This document shows, one piece after another, positions 1 to 25,421 of a DNA stretch of 64,000 bases (the stretch's first letter is position 1; each line of letters opens with the position of its first letter). This stretch comes from a virus. Taxonomy: Duplodnaviria; Caudoviricetes. Made by a program: the position numbers and the translations under genes. Location of the stretch: IMG/VR virus record IMGVR_UViG_3300017917_003016, positions 128,001 through 192,000 of that record; one strand, 5' to 3'. The notes beneath the pieces were generated by a model, which saw only the letters and a program-made list of their open reading frames with translations, ran no database searches and had not been told where the DNA came from.

Positions 1-541
1 GACCATTTTCTATGCGGTATTTAAAATAAGAAAAAATAATTTGATCTTTATACGGACTAGTCTGATATAACTTTTCAATAAAATCTCTATGAGTTTTTGT
101 TGAGCCCAAAAGACAATCAAACATTTTTGGTCTATCATAGGTATGATTTAGTTGCCCTAGTAATTTTTTAGCCCAGTTAGCAGTAGCATAGTAATTAACA
201 TGATCAATGAACCAACAGACTAAAGGTAAACATCTAGCATGATTTAGATTAAAATTGAGAATTGTATCACTAAAAAAAATTATTTTTTCGTAGTCATTGG
301 CTTTGATAAAATCAGCATAGTTAGTTGATTCGTTATGCACTGCTTCATTGTTATAGACAAAAAGTCTGGTACACCTGTTCAACAAATGGTTGATGATCTC
401 AGACTGCTGATCATAGTCATAGGTATAAAAATCGATGGCAATCGTATCGGCTGATCTATCAAATTTGATAAAATCATCAGGTTCAATAAGATGATGTTCT
501 TGTTGATTAAACTGCCAAAAAAAGGGTCCGGAATAAATCAT
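1..541 (-). CDS. Hypothetical protein, partial (runs off window start); possibly glycan-modification family
   Basis: Manually translated open frame from ATG at 541 (MIYSGPFFWQ...FDCLLGSTKTHRDFIEKLY...) with no stop before position 1; absent from ORF track. Confidence 0.7.
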   Translation of the reverse strand, partial: MIYSGPFFWQFNQQEHHLIEPDDFIKFDRSADTIAIDFYTYDYDQQSEIINHLLNRCTRLFVYNNEAVHNESTNYADFIKANDYEKIIFFSDTILNFNLNHARCLPLVCWFIDHVNYYATANWAKKLLGQLNHTYDRPKMFDCLLGSTKTHRDFIEKLYQTSPYKDQIIFSYFKYRIENG

Positions 542-1153: not shown

Positions 1154-1228
1154 CGCGGGATAGTGAAATGGCATCACGGTGGTCTCATAAGCCACAGTTC
1201 CTAGTTCGAATCTAGGTCTCCGCAACCA
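1154..1228 (+). tRNA. tRNA-Met(CAT), initiator-like
   Basis: Cloverleaf, CAT anticodon, C1:A72 mismatch, encoded CCA; one extra base in 3' acceptor strand. Confidence 0.8.
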
Positions 1229-1234
1229 GATTTT

Positions 1235-1309
1235 GCCGCGTTAGCACAGTGGTAGTGCAACGGTTTTGTAAACCGTAGGTCGTCTGTTCGAATCAGACAC
1301 GCGGCACCA
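1235..1309 (+). tRNA. tRNA-Thr(TGT)
   Basis: Cloverleaf, acggt-tt TGT aa-accgt, CCA end. Confidence 0.95.
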
Positions 1310-1316
1310 GATTATT

Positions 1317-1399
1317 GCCCGGGTGGTGGAATTGGTAGACACGCTGGTCTTAGAAGCCAGTGCTTCGGCGTAAGTGTTCGAGTCTCTTCTTGGGCACCA
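1317..1399 (+). tRNA. tRNA-Leu(TAG)
   Basis: Type II cloverleaf with variable arm, TAG anticodon, CCA end. Confidence 0.92.
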
Positions 1400-1406
1400 A
1401 AGTTTT

Positions 1407-1480
1407 GCGGCGTTCGTAAAATGGTATTACCTTAGCCTTCCAAGCTAAAGTCGCGAGTTCGATTCTCGCACGCCGCTCCA
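1407..1480 (+). tRNA. tRNA-Gly(TCC)
   Basis: Cloverleaf, TCC anticodon, U73, CCA end. Confidence 0.95.
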
Positions 1481-1484
1481 AGTT

Positions 1485-1576
1485 TCACATAAGTCAGATG
1501 AAGATGATGCCGTTGAAAGCGTGTGAAGATAGTGGACGATAAAACTTTAATTATAGCAGTACACTGGCTTATGTGA
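1485..1576 (+). ncRNA. Putative stem-loop RNA between tRNA-Gly and tRNA-Ala
   Basis: 13-bp inverted repeat tcacataagtcag (1485-1497) / ctggcttatgtga (1564-1576) with one G-U pair. Confidence 0.4.
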
Positions 1577-1579
1577 TTT

Positions 1580-1655
1580 GGGGGTGTAGCTCAGTTGGGA
1601 GAGCGCCAGCTTTGCAAGCTGGATGTCGCAAGTTCGATCCTTGTCACCTCCACCA
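1580..1655 (+). tRNA. tRNA-Ala(TGC)
   Basis: Cloverleaf, TGC anticodon, G3:U70, CCA end. Confidence 0.95.
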
Positions 1656-1662
1656 AATTTCT

Positions 1663-1738
1663 GCGGGCGTAACTCAGTTGGGAGAGTGCAACCTTGCCAA
1701 GGTTGATGTCGAGAGTTCGAACCTCTTCGCCCGCTCCA
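1663..1738 (+). tRNA. tRNA-Gly(GCC)
   Basis: Cloverleaf, GCC anticodon, CCA end. Confidence 0.95.
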
Positions 1739-1745
1739 TGTTTTT

Positions 1746-1821
1746 GGAAGGTTAGCTCAGTTGGTAGAGCATCGCCCTTACAAGGCGAGGGTCACTGGTT
1801 CGAGCCCAGTACCTTCCACCA
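1746..1821 (+). tRNA. tRNA-Val(TAC)
   Basis: Cloverleaf, TAC anticodon, CCA end. Confidence 0.95.
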
Positions 1822-1830
1822 AACACTACC

Positions 1831-2039
1831 GTGTCCTGACGGTTTATCAGGAGGTTGTGAGTATAGGTTGGCCAAACCTTCCAGAAACTCTCAGGTGCTC
1901 TGTCCACCTTAAGGCTACAGCGTAGACGTAGGCCCTGCGATAACGGCCCGCAGGTGTGATGTTCCTCTAGAGTGAACATACGGACAGGGTAACAACTCAG
2001 TTAGGGGCCATGGTGGTGCAGGTAGCCTAACACTGACAC
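1831..2039 (+). ncRNA. Putative structured non-coding RNA (multi-helix, possible pseudoknot)
   Basis: Several complementary segments in a 210-nt non-coding spacer: 1831-1835/2035-2039, 1836-1839/1847-1850, 1854-1858/1992-1996, 1865-1869/1875-1879, 1898-1905/1982-1989, 1934-1939/1949-1954, 1959-1964/1974-1979, 1912-1918/2022-2028. Confidence 0.55.
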
Positions 2040-2040
2040 T

Positions 2041-2117
2041 TCCCCGATAGCTCAGTTGGTAGTAGCAATGGACTGTTAATCCATGTGTCCCTGGTTCGAG
2101 CCCAGGTCGGGGAGCCA
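2041..2117 (+). tRNA. tRNA-Asn(GTT)
   Basis: Cloverleaf, GTT anticodon, G73, CCA end. Confidence 0.95.
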
Positions 2118-2122
2118 TTATT

Positions 2123-2199
2123 CGGACATTAGCGCAGCCCGGTAGCGCATCTGCTTTGGGAGCAGAGGGTCGTAGGTTCGAATCCTACATGTCCGACCA
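2123..2199 (+). tRNA. tRNA-Pro(TGG)
   Basis: Cloverleaf, TGG anticodon, C1-G72, CCA end. Confidence 0.95.
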
Positions 2200-2224
2200 T
2201 TTTTAATTTAACTAAAGGTAATGT

Positions 2225-2695
2225 ATGCAAAAACTTGACTTTGACGAAGTGCGGACGTTTATTCAGCAGCAAAGCCCAGAAACCAAAATCTACATTGGTG
2301 GCGATAGTCGTAGATTTCGTAAGGACAATACCTGGCATGCTGAATACACCCTTGCTGTTGTAGTTCATATCGATGGCAAGCATGGCTGCAAGATTTTTGG
2401 TGAGTCTTGCATTGAGCGTGATTTTGATCAACGTCGAGACCGCCCTAGCATGCGTCTTATGAATGAAGTCTACAAGATTAGTGAACTTTACCTTAAGTTA
2501 CACGAAGTTTTAGAAGATCGTGATGTTGAAGTACACCTAGATATTAACCCCAATGAAATGTACGGCAGTAGTTGTGTGGTACAACAGGCAGTGGGTTATA
2601 TTCGTGGTGTATGTAATGTTGTACCAATGGTTAAGCCTCGTGCGTTTGCTGCCAGTTACGCCGCAGACAGACTCAAGGAGGTATTGGCAGCATAA
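2225..2695 (+). CDS. RNase H-like protein (YkuK/DUF458-like)
   Basis: IYIGGDS...AVVVH...G...IF, RLMNEV, EVHLDINP, AASYAAD pattern typical of the family. Confidence 0.75.
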   Translation: MQKLDFDEVRTFIQQQSPETKIYIGGDSRRFRKDNTWHAEYTLAVVVHIDGKHGCKIFGESCIERDFDQRRDRPSMRLMNEVYKISELYLKLHEVLEDRDVEVHLDINPNEMYGSSCVVQQAVGYIRGVCNVVPMVKPRAFAASYAADRLKEVLAA

Positions 2696-2703
2696 AAGTT
2701 TAC

Positions 2704-2779
2704 GGGACGGTAGCTCAGTTGGTAGAGCAGCGGACTTTTAATCCGTTGGTCGCGAGTTCGAACCTCGCTCGTCCTACCA
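2704..2779 (+). tRNA. tRNA-Lys(TTT)
   Basis: Cloverleaf, TTT anticodon, CCA end. Confidence 0.95.
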
Positions 2780-2799
2780 ATATTAAAGGAGATCACAAA

Positions 2800-2982
2800 A
2801 TGAAAACGGTGGTTTTTAAAAATCGAAGATCAAATGAAAAATTTGTCTGCGACAACGTCCGTGATGTCCGTGTGATTGAAGGAGTTGAATATCTACAGGT
2901 ACATCGTCCGGACAATCCTAGAAACTTTTTGATGCGTAAAGATGCACTAGAAAGGGTAGAATCATCCCGCTTGCCGCGTTAG
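2800..2982 (+). CDS. Small hypothetical protein (60 aa)
   Basis: AAGGAG RBS then ATG at 2800; upstream part of tracked ORF overlaps tRNA-Lys. Confidence 0.65.
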   Translation: MKTVVFKNRRSNEKFVCDNVRDVRVIEGVEYLQVHRPDNPRNFLMRKDALERVESSRLPR

Positions 2983-3324
2983 GAAGTTGGCTCGCATGCT
3001 CTTTGGTTTGAAATATTCACGCACAACTTCTTTGACAATATCTATGCTGAATTCTTTGCAACTAAAAACGTCTAGATATAGATCGCCGGTTGAATCTATA
3101 AAGTGTGCAACAATACTGGATGTAACTATGATCTGCACAGCAGTGAATCCTGCTTTGTCGGGTTGATCTCCTGCTGTGTATTCTATCCAAGGTGTGCCAA
3201 TTGGCTCCATGTCAATTCTTTGCACTAGTTCTTCGATAAAGTTTTTAACATTCCATTTTTCCATGATCAGTGCACGGTTGCAGTCATGACAGTCTAATGT
3301 TAGATGATAACCCCAAAAACTCAT
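2962..3324 (-). CDS. speD: S-adenosylmethionine decarboxylase proenzyme (pyruvoyl-dependent, class 1b-like)
   Basis: GYHLTLDC, GFTAVQIIVTSSIVAHF, YLDVFSC match the SpeD fold and autocleavage region. Confidence 0.8.
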   Translation of the reverse strand: MSFWGYHLTLDCHDCNRALIMEKWNVKNFIEELVQRIDMEPIGTPWIEYTAGDQPDKAGFTAVQIIVTSSIVAHFIDSTGDLYLDVFSCKEFSIDIVKEVVREYFKPKSMRANFLTRQAG

Positions 3325-3395
3325 TGATGTCTCCTTGACATAGAATTCGTAAGAAAGTATAGTTATTTATTGTGCAGAGCAAAAAGTTAGATATA

Positions 3396-3469
3396 CCCGG
3401 TGTAGTTTAATGGTAGAACCGCAGCCTCCAAATCTGCATGTGGGAGTTCGATTCTCTCCACCGGGCCCA
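3396..3469 (+). tRNA. tRNA-Trp(CCA)
   Basis: Cloverleaf, CCA anticodon, CCA end; atypical C73 and C31:U39. Confidence 0.85.
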
Positions 3470-3474
3470 TTTAT

Positions 3475-3552
3475 GTAGAGGTGGCAGAGTGGCCCAATGC
3501 AAGGGATTGCAAATCCCTAAAACCGTGAGTTCGAATCTCACCCTCTACTCCA
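3475..3552 (+). tRNA. tRNA-Cys(GCA)
   Basis: Cloverleaf, GCA anticodon, U73, CCA end. Confidence 0.93.
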
Positions 3553-4047
3553 TTACCTGCACTGTTCTATTAGATTGGGCACTGCAAACCCTGTACTACC
3601 GTGTTTTTTCAAAAAATTACTCTGTGCGGTATAGGCATGCTGTTCGCTCTTAGCCCAGTGTAGGCAGTCTGGTTCATTTTTAAACAAATTGTTTTTTACC
3701 TGAGCCCAGTGTACTAATTCATGAAATACCACACTGGCAGTGAATAGGTTAATCTGCAGCAATGCTGGACTGATCAGTATCTCACCAGTCTCGTCGTCTG
3801 TGATAGCAGCCACATGACAGTCATGATTGACATCTTTGCAGTAGGCTGCTTCTATGGCCTGCCTGCTGGCTAGATAAACTTTGGGTTGTTCTTTAGGCAA
3901 AGGTAATCTGGTTATTTCAGTTATTTCTGTCATCAAAGGTCTGATCAGATTCTCATACATAATTGGCGGAATTGGAGTCTTAGAAATTTCTTGTGCATGG
4001 CTCCGGGCTGTGACCAGCAGCGCCAGGAGGAATATAATTTTTTTCAT
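3553..4047 (-). CDS. Secreted HExxH (zincin-like) protein, related to 593..1099
   Basis: Signal peptide; VFHELVHWAQ followed by SEQHAY. Confidence 0.6.
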   Translation of the reverse strand: MKKIIFLLALLVTARSHAQEISKTPIPPIMYENLIRPLMTEITEITRLPLPKEQPKVYLASRQAIEAAYCKDVNHDCHVAAITDDETGEILISPALLQINLFTASVVFHELVHWAQVKNNLFKNEPDCLHWAKSEQHAYTAQSNFLKKHGSTGFAVPNLIEQCR

Positions 4048-4078
4048 TTTAATTCCAAGTATCTACATACTTATGCTA

Positions 4079-4155
4079 GCCCCCGTAGCTCAGTGGACCA
4101 GAGCGGTGCGCTTCGAACGCACGGGTCGGGAGTTCGAATCTCTCCGGGGGCTCCA
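4079..4155 (+). tRNA. tRNA-Arg(TCG)
   Basis: Cloverleaf, gtgcg-ct TCG aa-cgcac, CCA end. Confidence 0.93.
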
Positions 4156-4214
4156 AATAAATAACTGTTGACAGCGGTTTAATGTATTTGATTTGATTTT
4201 TCATAAATAAAATT

Positions 4215-4850
4215 ATGCATACTTGTTTATACTGTCAAAAAAATTTTACTAACCTGGGTGGTTTGGGGGCGCATCACCCTTATTGTAAATCTAACCCAGA
4301 AAGAAAACAGCGTACAAAATCTCCCAATGCACATCGTAAAAAAGGTTCAATACCCTGGAACAAAGGGTTATCTATAGAAACTGATCAAAGAATAAAACCA
4401 AGATTAGAACTACAAGGTAAAAGATTTGGTGCTTCGTTAAACGGTCACAGTGAAGAGACTAAGAAAAAACTATCAGAAATCGCCAAAGAACGTAAATTAG
4501 GTGGATATGTAAAAGGCTCCGGAAGAGGTAAAAAAGGCTGGTACAAAGGATTTTTTTGCGACAGTAGTTGGGAACTTGCCTATGTAATTTATTGTTTAGA
4601 ACACGGTATAGATATTAAAAGAAATACAGAAATCAGAGAATACATATGGAAAGGGCAAGTTAAAAAATATATTCCTGATTTTAATGTACAAGGTGTAATA
4701 ACTGAAATTAAGGGTTACAAGACAGAACAATGGCTAGCAAAATTAAAAGCAAATATTGATGTAAAAGTCTTGTATGAAAAAGATTTAGAGTATATAATAG
4801 AGTATGTTAGTAGCAAATACGGTAAAGATTTTGTAAAGTTGTACGAGTAA
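4215..4850 (+). CDS. Free-standing homing-type endonuclease (zinc finger + NUMOD3-like + PD-(D/E)xK domain)
   Basis: CLYC...HHPYC finger, HSEETKKKLS repeat-like motif, DSSWE...YIPDF...EIKGY nuclease motif; CATAAATA at 4202-4209 upstream. Confidence 0.7.
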   Translation: MHTCLYCQKNFTNLGGLGAHHPYCKSNPERKQRTKSPNAHRKKGSIPWNKGLSIETDQRIKPRLELQGKRFGASLNGHSEETKKKLSEIAKERKLGGYVKGSGRGKKGWYKGFFCDSSWELAYVIYCLEHGIDIKRNTEIREYIWKGQVKKYIPDFNVQGVITEIKGYKTEQWLAKLKANIDVKVLYEKDLEYIIEYVSSKYGKDFVKLYE

Positions 4851-4855
4851 TGTTT

Positions 4856-4946
4856 GGAGGGGCAAACCGATTGGTGACGGTACCTGTCTTGAAAACAGTT
4901 GAGCGTTAATAGCGCCTTGGGGGTTCGACTCCGCCTCCCTCCGCCA
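4856..4946 (+). tRNA. tRNA-Ser(TGA)
   Basis: Type II cloverleaf with long variable arm, TGA anticodon, G73, CCA end. Confidence 0.9.
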
Positions 4947-4961
4947 ATTTTATGAGGCTGT

Positions 4962-5582
4962 ATGATTAAACTGCTAGGAAAACTACCGCGAGAAATTTGG
5001 GTAGCCTGCTCAGGTGGTGTCGATAGTCTTGCTGCTGTAGATTTTCTCAAAAACAATCATCGCGTTAGTGTGGTTTTTGTGCATCATGGCACAGAAGCCA
5101 GCGACCAAGGCATGATCAAAGTCTGCGAATATGCAGACACACACGCACTGCCGGTAGTGGTAAAATACATCGATACCCATCGGCCGCGCCAGCAAAGTCA
5201 GGAAGAATACTGGCGTCGAGAACGCTATGAGTTTTTTGATGAATTGCACAACGAATGGCCGTTGGTCACTGCACATCATCTAGATGACTGTGTGGAAACT
5301 TATGTATGGAGTATGTGTCATGGCCGCGGCAAGGTAATTCCCCATCGTCGTGGTCGCGTGATTAGGCCGTTTCTTCTTAACTCTAAACAGGAATTGATTG
5401 ATTGGGCTGAACTGCATGGCCTGTCCTGGCATGATGATGCCAGCAATCACGATATTAAGTATACACGCAATCTTGTACGACACGAAGTACTTCCACAGGT
5501 TCTACGGGTCAACCCCGGCATCGCACAAGTTGTGCGCAGGATTGTTAAAGATAATTTTGATCTTGACAGGCATCAATACTGA
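4962..5582 (+). CDS. tilS: tRNA(Ile)-lysidine synthetase, catalytic domain only
   Basis: SGGVDS PP-loop, RYEFF, TAHHLDD..ET, RPFL, DASN...YTRN..RH motifs. Confidence 0.9.
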   Translation: MIKLLGKLPREIWVACSGGVDSLAAVDFLKNNHRVSVVFVHHGTEASDQGMIKVCEYADTHALPVVVKYIDTHRPRQQSQEEYWRRERYEFFDELHNEWPLVTAHHLDDCVETYVWSMCHGRGKVIPHRRGRVIRPFLLNSKQELIDWAELHGLSWHDDASNHDIKYTRNLVRHEVLPQVLRVNPGIAQVVRRIVKDNFDLDRHQY

Positions 5583-5591
5583 ATATATACT
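5563..5591 (+). promoter_or_regulatory. sigma70-type promoter for tRNA-Ile2
   Basis: TTGACA (5563-5568), 17 nt, TATACT (5586-5591), overlapping tilS 3' end. Confidence 0.7.
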
Positions 5592-5607
5592 ATGTAATGA
5601 AAGTTAC

Positions 5608-5684
<77 letters not shown>

Positions 5685-5704
5685 ATATATTACTAGGTTT
5701 AATC

Positions 5705-5914
5705 ATGATAGAAAAAGAGTTGATTGATCTAATGCTAAGTATTAAGCATGAATTAATTGCTATCAGAACTGATCTAACATTGATTAATCATGATGTAATT
5801 AAAATTAACGAACGTATAGATACGTTGACAACTTTGGCTATGCAACCTCAAGAAAGTATTGGAATCGCTCCAAACACACCGCATCCAAGTTATCTTCCTC
5901 CAGAGGTAATGTAG
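5705..5914 (+). CDS. Hypothetical protein
   Basis: In-frame ATG at 5705 after the tRNA. Confidence 0.5.
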   Translation: MIEKELIDLMLSIKHELIAIRTDLTLINHDVIKINERIDTLTTLAMQPQESIGIAPNTPHPSYLPPEVM

Positions 5915-5947
5915 TCAAAACTTAAATTATTTTATAAGGAAACTAAA

Positions 5948-6277
5948 ATGTTAACAATGCTTTCTGTAGTAGTGGTACTGCTGGTAGCAGGGTATATTAT
6001 TAATACACGACTGCAAAAGTCGCAGACTAAGACCAGCCAACCTACTCCCACTGAACCCGTCAAAGTTACTGTCAGTGAAGAAGTTGTCACAGGGTTGACT
6101 GATCAAAAGATTGATGAAGTTGCTGCGGTAGTCGAGGGTGTTGAAGCAGTAGTGCCAGAAACTAAGGTAGAGGTTGTAGTCGAAACTACTGCCAAGAAGC
6201 CTGCAGCACGTAAGTCTTCAGCACGTAAGCCCGCTGCTAAGAAGGCACCTGCTAAGAAGCCTGCTGCTAAGAAGTAA
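5948..6277 (+). CDS. Membrane-anchored protein with Lys/Ala/Pro-rich histone-like tail
   Basis: N-terminal hydrophobic helix; C-terminal KKPAARK/KKAPAKKPAAKK repeats. Confidence 0.7.
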   Translation: MLTMLSVVVVLLVAGYIINTRLQKSQTKTSQPTPTEPVKVTVSEEVVTGLTDQKIDEVAAVVEGVEAVVPETKVEVVVETTAKKPAARKSSARKPAAKKAPAKKPAAKK

Positions 6278-6286
6278 AGTTTAATT

Positions 6287-6374
6287 GCCCGGGTGGTGAA
6301 ATAGGTAGACACAACGGACTTAAAATCCGTCGCCCTAAACAGGCGTACCGGTTCGATTCCGGTCCCGGGCACCA
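6287..6374 (+). tRNA. tRNA-Leu(TAA)
   Basis: Type II cloverleaf, TAA anticodon, CCA end. Confidence 0.95.
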
Positions 6375-6382
6375 ACAATACT

Positions 6383-6586
6383 ATGGACGTTAATCAACTT
6401 ATTAATCGTGTAAAAAATCTCCAGTACTGGGAAGTGACAATACCAGTACCACCGTTGGTAAAGTTTTCTGGGCGTGTGCCTTTTACTGTAAAAATAGTTG
6501 ATGACCGTGCTGTATGTAAGGTTTTAGCAGTTGACATAGTTGAAGCAGAACGCAGGGTTTTAGAATACTTTAATTCACAAGTTTAA
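6383..6586 (+). CDS. Hypothetical protein
   Basis: Fills gap between two tRNAs. Confidence 0.55.
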   Translation: MDVNQLINRVKNLQYWEVTIPVPPLVKFSGRVPFTVKIVDDRAVCKVLAVDIVEAERRVLEYFNSQV

Positions 6587-6587
6587 A

Positions 6588-6662
6588 CTGCTCGTAGCCT
6601 AATGGAAAGGCAACACTCTTCTAAAGTGTCTTATGGGGGTTCGAGTCCCTCCGGGCAGGCCA
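6588..6662 (+). tRNA. tRNA-Arg(TCT)
   Basis: Cloverleaf, acact-ct TCT aa-agtgt, CCA end. Confidence 0.93.
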
Positions 6663-6668
6663 AGTTAA

Positions 6669-6759
6669 GGAGAGTTGGCCGAGCGGTCGATGGCACCGGT
6701 CTACTAAACCGGCATACAGTTAACCTGTATCCAGGGTTCGAATCCCTGACTCTCCGCCA
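6669..6759 (+). tRNA. tRNA-Ser(ACT), rare A34 anticodon
   Basis: ccggt-ct ACT aa-accgg, long variable arm atacag/ctgtat, G73, CCA end. Confidence 0.85.
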
Positions 6760-24842: not shown

Positions 24843-24848
24843 TATTGA

Positions 24849-25350
24849 ACTATTTTTGAAGTAAATAAGAGTATTGCTGTATGAAGTTGATGGAAAGGTG
24901 TTCTGGACGCGGGTTCGACTCCCGCCGACTCCACCAAAAATGCACTGTATGACTGAAGACCAAAGACGTTACGCCTATGAATTGTTTTACCTAGTAAAAG
25001 GCCATGTCAAGTATTTTGACGATGCTGACCTAGAGGCCATAGTCAAAGATTATACTCGGCGTCTGTGGTACAATGAAGAAGCACATTTGTACCGTGAAGG
25101 GTTTGAAGAAGCATATCGTGTGTTTTCGCTGGGGTCGTACAGGTTTCGACAGGGCAAATGAGTACGGATATGGACAGCACGGTAGGCGAAGACCGTAAAT
25201 CTAGCAAAACTTATAGATGCCAACACATCTAAATTTGGTACTGCAAAAGTATCTATGGGCCGCGGCTTCCGCTTCGGTACTCGTAGTGCTGAGGCAGTAG
25301 CAGCCTAAACTCTGCAACCACGGGGTTGGTTAGCCTTGTTACCCAATTAA
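24849..25350 (+). ncRNA. ssrA: Circularly permuted (two-piece) tmRNA gene: acceptor piece about 24849-24936, intervening segment 24937-25130, coding piece from 25131
   Basis: T-arm gcggg-ttcgact-cccgc and cgactcc-A-CCA lie upstream of 5' end ggggtcg-tacaggtttcgac; stem has G3:U70; tag frame 25219-25308 ends AVAA-stop; outer ends approximate. Confidence 0.9.
24940..25161 (+). CDS. 73-aa ORF nested in the tmRNA intervening segment
   Basis: ATG 3 nt after CCA (second ATG at 24949); open through IVS; stop lies inside the tmRNA coding piece. Confidence 0.55.
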   Translation: MHCMTEDQRRYAYELFYLVKGHVKYFDDADLEAIVKDYTRRLWYNEEAHLYREGFEEAYRVFSLGSYRFRQGK

Positions 25351-25352
25351 CC

Positions 25353-25377
25353 AAAGCCCACTTCGGTGGGCTTTTTT
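25353..25377 (+). terminator. Intrinsic terminator of ssrA
   Basis: aaagcccac-ttcg-gtgggc-tttttt. Confidence 0.9.
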
Positions 25378-25421
25378 ATCTTGATTATAGACAAAATAAA
25401 TATCTAAAAGGATGAGAAAGC

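Follow-up and report, generated by a model that had tools for sequence, protein, structure and literature searches.

Phage T4 encodes among its tRNA genes two stable RNAs that are not tRNAs, species 1 and species 2 (rnaC and rnaD), which are co-transcribed and processed with the tRNAs. They have been known for about fifty years and, to our knowledge, their function was never found. At about 120-140 nt they are presumably shorter than the RNA presented here, and we take it that they have not been described as pseudoknot chains. tmRNA (ssrA), which is likewise encoded by phages, contains successive H-type pseudoknots in a loop that is sealed by base pairing between its two termini; as far as we know, closed pseudoknot chains are rare outside tmRNA. 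Consecutive H-type pseudoknots without linkers also make up the upstream pseudoknot domain (UPD) of TMV, where they are thought to stack as a rod before a conserved 3' domain. HDV-like theta ribozymes are pseudoknotted as well and lie directly beside phage tRNA genes. GOLLD (RF02032) and ROOL (RF03087) are structured RNAs of phages and prophages, often located near tRNA islands and containing multiple pseudoknots (PMC12286853; PMC5737381). Both form homo-oligomeric cages (PMC12286853).

The RNA described here, of about 215 nt, is encoded in a 64,000-nt stretch of DNA from a giant uncultured phage, which was analysed as a whole and is called the window. In function it is most like T4 species 1 and 2, GOLLD and ROOL, and in form it is like tmRNA and the TMV UPD, but it belongs to none of these groups. 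With the T4 RNAs it shares its place among phage tRNA genes; blastn of three family members against GenBank phages gave no sequence similarity to species 1 or 2. Like GOLLD and ROOL, the family consists of structured phage RNAs with multiple pseudoknots that lie beside tRNAs, but GOLLD and ROOL measure about 500 to more than 800 nt, and their Rfam models matched neither the window copy (E = 10) nor four other members (E = 5). Unlike tmRNA, the family RNA has no tRNA-like domain, CCA end or tag reading frame, and the tmRNA models (RF00023, RF01850, RF04321) and ARAGORN gave a match at 24844-25399 of the window and nothing at 1822-2040. The likeness to the tobamovirus UPD is one of form only, since that domain belongs to a eukaryotic RNA virus and lies in an mRNA and genome 3' UTR before an aminoacylatable tRNA-like end, whereas the family RNA is encoded by phages. 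The theta ribozymes are much smaller and form a nested double pseudoknot starting at the cleavage site, a topology that the family does not fit; HDV-type Rfam families did not match 1822-2040 at E up to 10. Neither the manA motif (RF01745) nor other phage- or tRNA-linked motifs of Rfam nor YrlA matched the element, and the weak YrlA matches obtained (15-20 bits) fell on tRNAs.

The tRNA-Val/tRNA-Asn gap and its surroundings

The window is part of an IMG/VR virus record of 201.7 kb, with an estimated completeness of 56% (CheckV). ARAGORN and Rfam located 18 tRNAs, every one of them + strand, at 1155-6759 of the window; they also gave a permuted tmRNA at 24844-25399. The original prediction had proposed a novel multi-helix RNA in a non-coding, GC-richer spacer between two of these tRNAs. 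This reading of the spacer was confirmed: positions 1822-2040 are the exact tRNA-Val/tRNA-Asn gap, the only ORFs there are those overlapping the tRNAs, and the G+C content is 52.5%, against 41.8% for the whole window. The gene is present as a single copy in the 201.7-kb record. The locus comprises the following features:

1080-1108, + strand: promoter of sigma-70-type consensus, TTGACA-17-TATAAT (12/12), about 45 nt 5' of the first tRNA of the array
1746-1821, + strand: tRNA-Val(UAC), CCA encoded; its 3' end sets the 5' end of the ncRNA gene
1822-2040, + strand: ncRNA gene of 219 nt, filling the tRNA-Val/tRNA-Asn gap exactly, with 0-nt gaps
2041-2117, + strand: tRNA-Asn(GUU); its 5' end sets the 3' end of the ncRNA gene

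Between the promoter and position 2800 no terminator-like site was found on the + strand, and the promoter is likely the start of a tRNA/ncRNA polycistron. Gene context, that is, this promoter without a terminator before the element, co-oriented neighbours and gaps of 0-2 nt, thus agrees with the earlier suggestion that the RNA is co-transcribed with the tRNAs and released by their processing.

The same array contains other elements. An ORF of 156 aa at 2225-2695 (+ strand), within the tRNA array, encodes an RNase H-like protein (PF04308, E 3.5e-16); 231 relatives are present in IMG/VR, and in the loci examined they lie among tRNA genes. Antisense in the tRNA region, an ORF of 120 aa at 2965-3324 (- strand) has a match to S-adenosylmethionine decarboxylase (PF02675, E 3.4e-17). 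At 1481-1579 (+ strand), tRNA-Gly(UCC) and tRNA-Ala are separated by a 99-nt gap that a 13-bp stem closes (CACAUAAGUCAG.../...CUGGCUUAUGUG). No homologues of this module were detected among about 200 fetched loci, and in close relatives the Gly-Ala gap is occupied by the pseudoknot RNA instead.

Searches for known relatives of the element were negative. Rfam 15, with which the whole window was scanned, gave no match to 1822-2040 at the gathering score, and at E up to 10 on 1400-2300 nothing fell on 1822-2040; four other family members had no match at E up to 5. The original prediction had left the family assignment to such a scan, and its claim of novelty holds against Rfam 15 down to E = 10. 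A blastn search (word 11) with the window copy and two other members (L108 and L008) against 50,697 GenBank phage records returned nothing, and an exact 23-mer from the central region of the window copy had 0 matches in IMG/VR. No description of the RNA was found in the full-text literature; a 2023 catalogue of about 8,500 structured-RNA candidates from IMG/VR (PMC10690425) could still list it. Judged from sequence comparison, positions 1822-2040 are a conserved, highly structured, pseudoknotted RNA gene of a family absent from Rfam.

Members and distribution of the family

Homologues were collected from two sets of seeds, the loci around homologues of the ORF at 2225-2695 and an IMG/VR scan for the core motif GGACAGNGTAACNNCTCART, which occurs in at least 119 stretches. 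With both seed sets, nhmmer gave at least about 150 matches. A covariance model (R1) identified at least 107 full-length copies in at least 100 loci and recovered divergent copies that nhmmer had matched in their 3' third only. The window copy aligns with R1 over model positions 1-213 of 213, with 80.4 bits and E 9e-25; most members score 140-208 bits, which marks the window copy as divergent. Its close relatives (L223, L224 and L225) were obtained with a looser pattern. Collecting homologues and building a covariance model, the route by which a functional conserved RNA was to be recognized, thus yielded 107 covarying homologues among the matches listed.

Among the loci listed, tRNA neighbours were co-oriented with the element in every case, both upstream (92/92) and downstream (100/100), and in 53 of the 92 the upstream tRNA was separated by 0-2 nt or overlapped slightly. 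The arrays contain a median of 13 and a maximum of 36 tRNAs per locus, together with one or two family copies. The slot occupied in the array depends on the clade, being Gly-Ala, Met-Glu or Thr-Gly, and Val-Asn in the window. All matches listed lie in tRNA arrays of uncultured phages, many of them on contigs longer than 100 kb. When one genome from each of 185,579 prokaryote species was scanned for the core motif, 22 matches were found, including a single true family member. This match (L203, CAISPN010000008.1) carries the 3' part of the RNA on a 3-kb contig of a cyanobacterial MAG, together with four co-oriented tRNAs, one of them a CUA suppressor. Because of its short length, its co-oriented tRNAs and the suppressor among them, the contig most likely comes from a phage and was binned into the MAG in error. 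In the collections scanned, the family is thus found in phages only.

Seven loci (L167, L195, L118, L177, L172, L082 and L188) hold two copies, a typical one scoring 105-155 bits and a divergent 'type 2' copy scoring 28-70 bits. Inspected by eye in L111, the type 2 copy follows the same pseudoknot plan and differs in its middle part. The presence of two divergent copies in seven loci is evidence against a mere spacer. Downstream, the distance to the next tRNA is 51-150 nt in 44 of 100 loci. Most of these gaps contain modules with a closing stem of about 10 bp (e.g., AAAUACAUUU/AAAUGUAUUU) and a conserved trailer AAUAAAGUAU at the end; loci with such a module directly 3' of the element include L084, L086, L116, L123, L141 and L154. 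The stem-closed module at 1481-1579 of the window is of a similar kind. A few downstream gaps (L140, L118) resemble tRNAs missed by ARAGORN.

A connection with the phage tmRNA was also considered and rejected. At best the ncRNA and the tmRNA are complementary over 9 nt, and chance alone would give about 0.5 such matches; a general linkage was dropped as tmRNA calls by ARAGORN were confined to 4 of 202 loci. In one locus (L148), a permuted tmRNA gene not called by ARAGORN lies at 13-295 (- strand); it shares the array with the element and is located some 560 nt downstream of it.

Pseudoknots, helices and the 3' domain

The covariation among relatives supports a family fold of four head-to-tail H-type pseudoknots (A-D) with a fifth, long-range pairing. 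No linkers separate pseudoknots A-D, the 5' strand of each abutting the 3' strand of the one before. Through pairing of the 5' leader with the 3' hairpin loop, the predicted pseudoknot chain is closed on itself. In the window copy the predicted parts are:

1824-2018, + strand: long-range leader-loop pseudoknot, CACU 1824-1827 (extendable to 1830) with apical GGUG 2015-2018 (extendable back to 2012)
1828-1852, + strand: pseudoknot A, stem 1 1828-1831/1840-1843 (ACCG/CGGU), stem 2 1834-1839/1847-1852 (UCCUGA/UCAGGA)
1853-1893, + strand: pseudoknot B, stem 1 1853-1854/1881-1882 (GG/CC, weak in the window), stem 2 1858-1861/1890-1893 (UGAG/CUCA)
1865-1879, + strand: lineage-specific hairpin inside pseudoknot B, AGGUU/AACCU, with the palindromic loop GGCC(A)
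1894-1954, + strand: pseudoknot C, stem 1 1894-1897/1905-1908 (GGUG/CACC), stem 2 1899-1903/1950-1954 (UCUGU/GCAGG)
1912-1914/1934-1936 and 1915-1918/1928-1931, + strand: outer and inner stems of hairpin E, inside pseudoknot C
1959-1979, + strand: stem 2 of pseudoknot D, AUGUUC/GAACAU; its stem 1 partner has at most 2 bp in the window
1981-2001, + strand: near-invariant core CGGACAGGGUAACAACUCAGU, with a small hairpin 1987-1990/1995-1998
2000-2031, + strand: 3' stem-loop, outer stem 2000-2005/2026-2031, internal loop GGGC/GUAGC, inner stem 2007-2012/2019-2023, loop GUGGUG
2032-2040, + strand: 3' tail ACUGACACU, reaching the RNase P site of tRNA-Asn; the tail consensus of the family is ACACUUUAUU

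Folded as a single sequence, 1822-2040 has a minimum free energy of -72.5 kcal/mol (z = -0.58), which is matched by 49 of 200 shuffles; on neither strand was single-sequence folding better than chance (z = -0.58 and -0.27). It is the comparison with relatives, not the energy of one sequence, that shows the RNA to be more than chance. In the 107-sequence covariance-model alignment, which was fitted to part of the structure and therefore biases the counts in favour of that structure, the proposed pairs are formed in 82.3% of cells compared with 65.3% in shuffles, and 0 of 500 shuffles reach 82.3%. Sliding the partners by 1-3 columns leaves 35-45% of cells paired, and 1146 cells are changed on both sides where 442 are expected. 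By helix, the paired cells amount to 97% in stem 2 of A, 97% and 90% in stems 1 and 2 of C, 82% in hairpin E, 82% in the helix of pseudoknot D named D_S1a, 79% in stem 2 of D and 97% in the 3' stem-loop. Stem 1 of C crosses stem 2 of C, and D_S1a crosses stem 2 of D, so two of the pseudoknots are supported directly by this pair count.

Short stems outside the model were examined with anchored permutation tests, as register shifts spoil the alignment columns; such shifts also defeated a helix scan of the MAFFT alignment, and stems of 3-4 bp were beyond the power of a register-free 'longest helix' test. The third pair of stem 1 of A was found in 75% of cases, compared with 45% after permutation. 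In pseudoknot B, stem 1 showed a Watson-Crick match in 76% (34% permuted) and stem 2 a helix of at least 4 bp in 81% (36% permuted), and in pseudoknot D a stem 1 of at least 4 bp was obtained in 90% (64% permuted). A leader-loop Watson-Crick helix of at least 3 bp is possible in 94% of 85 distinct combinations, compared with 70% in 1000 permutations (maximum 82%). For each of these five pairings, not one of the 500-1000 permutations reached the observed value.

The substitutions give the same picture part by part. The leader and the loop covary as ACC/GGU, UCCC/GGGA, CCUC/GAGG, CCCC/GGGG and UACCC/GGGUA, and further as CACUA/UAGUG, AACU/AGUU, UUCC/GGAA and UUUCC/GGAAA. Compensatory changes occur at 6/6 pairs of stem 2 of A, and stem 1 of A varies as CGU/ACG, CGGA/UCCG, CGUG/CACG, CGCA/UGCG and CAGU/ACUG; in L223 pseudoknot A is formed by ACCU/GGGU and CUUCC/GGAAG. 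The register of pseudoknot B in the window is inferred, and its stem 1 appears in the family as CGU/ACG, GGU/ACC, GGC/GCC, CGC/GCG and GGUG/CACC. Both stems of C and hairpin E all show compensatory changes, at 5/5 pairs in the case of stem 2 of C, which is retained in L225 and L223. Stem 2 of D has compensatory changes at 5/5 pairs and the 3' stem-loop at 8/11. All proposed family pairs are canonical in the window copy: pseudoknots A and C and the leader-loop pairing are clear, stem 1 is at most 2 bp in B and D, and stem 2 of C competes with the pairings cctgcg/cgcagg and ctctgtcc/ggacaggg. For these competing pairings in the central region, only the three close relatives help to resolve the structure. 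A Shine-Dalgarno-like AGGAGGU at 1849-1855 was discarded because the family does not conserve it.

Optional insert hairpins with palindromic loops were observed, with GGCC in the subfamily of the window (1865-1879) and with CUAG in pseudoknot C of L010 and L087, and their stems differ among relatives. In the hairpin at 1865-1879 the stem covaries and the GGCC loop is retained in L225 and in L223/L224. Such loops could enable loop-loop dimerisation.

The original prediction had built a different pseudoknotted fold from seven complementary string pairs, all of which are present where they had been read. Its view of a pseudoknotted RNA is upheld, but through five other pseudoknots, and the fold it drew is mostly wrong. 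Three of its hairpins survive, with support from the family or from the three close relatives: ctga/tcag as part of stem 2 of pseudoknot A; atgttc/gaacat as stem 2 of pseudoknot D; and aggtt/aacct, the stem of which covaries as AGUUCC/GGAACU and CGCAAUU/AAUUGCG. The supposed closing helix gtgtc/gacac is non-complementary in L225 and L223, and of the six pairs of cctgcg/cgcagg three are lost in L225. In L223 and L225 alike the crossing pairing aggctac/gtagcct is disrupted; its strands belong to the conserved hairpin E and to the invariant GUAGC. The long-range helix ctctgtcc/ggacaggg can form in the subfamily of the window only. We treat it as at most an alternative conformer, since its 5' strand pairs locally in all other clades and GGACAG is invariant regardless.

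While the stems vary freely, the 3' domain of about 60 nt contains about 30 invariant bases (GGACAGRGUAAC..CUCAGU, GGGC/GUAGC). Its core, columns 314-337 of the alignment, is invariant or nearly so in the 107 sequences, and the window copy has every family-invariant base at 1982-2001 and at 2005-2008 with 2022-2026. Positions 1988 and 1995 switch together (A.G 64, G.A 39, U-A 2, A-U 1), which is the signature of a direct non-canonical pair. Two other ideas on this region were dropped. Binding of tRNA CCA ends by UGG of the 3' hairpin loop, in the style of T-box RNA or RNase P, was abandoned because the loop covaries with its own 5' leader, and a GGAC/GUYN pairing at the base of the 3' stem clashes with the strongly covarying outer stem.

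Proposed role and alternative explanations

We favour, as probable though far from certain, a stable RNA of about 215 nt that would be released from the tRNA operon by tRNA nucleases and act in trans. Judging from its position, the ncRNA would be transcribed together with the tRNAs from the promoter at 1080-1108. Its 3' end would be produced by the RNase P cut at the 5' end of tRNA-Asn, and its 5' end by the endonuclease and trimming activities of tRNA-Val CCA-end maturation. With its 5' leader paired and its fold compact and knotted, the 5'-monophosphate RNA may then be shielded from RNase E and exonucleases, so that it would accumulate. The pseudoknot chain might serve as a scaffold that presents the invariant 3' domain, through which the RNA would bind a partner; components of host translation or RNA decay, whether protein or RNA, are the most plausible candidates. 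The contrast between freely changing stems and a fixed 3' domain suggests that this domain binds its partner in trans. It was also considered that the pseudoknot ring is itself the machine, either as a catalyst or as a self-assembling particle, or else that the RNA, with no protein partner of its own, is a tmRNA-like mimic that would dock on RNase E, ribosomal protein S1 or the ribosome of the host and reprogramme translation or RNA decay during infection; this version appears unlikely.

Several other explanations share part of the evidence. A cis-acting element of the tRNA precursor, which would pace or organise processing or block exonucleases and have no independent existence, would account for the constant location within tRNA arrays, on the tRNA strand and often abutting tRNAs. 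Nuclease resistance is possible for pseudoknot-rich folds and is established for those of the flaviviral xrRNAs. However, a locus contains one or two copies but 13 tRNAs in the median and 36 at most, the slot differs among clades and two divergent paralogues are maintained within the same genomes, all of which argues against a pure cis role; the roughly 30 invariant bases of the 3' domain also go far beyond the needs of a roadblock. We therefore regard this explanation as improbable. A self-assembling particle made of RNA only, a small cousin of ROOL and GOLLD forming loop-loop dimers or larger assemblies, is decidedly improbable. It would fit the genomic habitat common to ROOL and GOLLD, the palindromic GGCC loop kept on a covarying hairpin in the window subfamily and the CUAG loops read off the alignment on insert hairpins of other clades, but these loops sit on optional, lineage-specific inserts outside the conserved core, and the RNA is 3-4 times smaller than ROOL and GOLLD, neither model of which matches it.

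Of the two functions named in the original prediction, ribozyme and ligand binder, neither is favoured by the present evidence. An invariant core, multiple pseudoknots and a start 0-2 nt past the upstream tRNA might equally be expected of a new ribozyme, e.g., one cleaving its own boundary to free the neighbouring tRNA, a role that has been proposed for the HDV-like theta ribozymes beside phage tRNAs. The strand order of pseudoknot C with hairpin E is that of an HDV-like P1-P2-P1'-P4-P2', and a P3-like hairpin can be read off the alignment in one clade. This order is internal, however, and not at the 5' end where cleavage is needed, the P3 hairpin is absent from most members, the ribozyme families of Rfam gave no match at E up to 10, and RNase P and 3'-end processing sites are already supplied by the flanking tRNAs, all of which makes a ribozyme very unlikely. 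There is little reason to expect a ligand-sensing aptamer without expression platform or a small-molecule sponge: the conserved core has a riboswitch-like density, but the element is flanked by tRNAs, with no downstream ORF or terminator to control, and the riboswitch families of Rfam did not match it. As for a functionless sequence, either a spacer structured by chance or a decayed tRNA or tmRNA remnant, the fold energy, which is no better than that of shuffles, would be as expected. This explanation is hardly tenable, being refuted by covariation, with 107 homologues and compensatory changes in almost every helix, and neither ARAGORN nor Rfam gave a tRNA or tmRNA signal in 1822-2040.

GOLLD and ROOL show that the extra RNAs of phage tRNA clusters can be remarkable structures. 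The family is a compact addition of about 215 nt: more than 100 variants occur in nature, and their covariation suffices to fix five pseudoknots. It also shows the "spacers" of phage tRNA arrays to be dense in RNA genes, which annotation pipelines overlook. If the target of this RNA is indeed the machinery of translation or RNA decay, it would represent a new kind of tool for phage takeover of the host.
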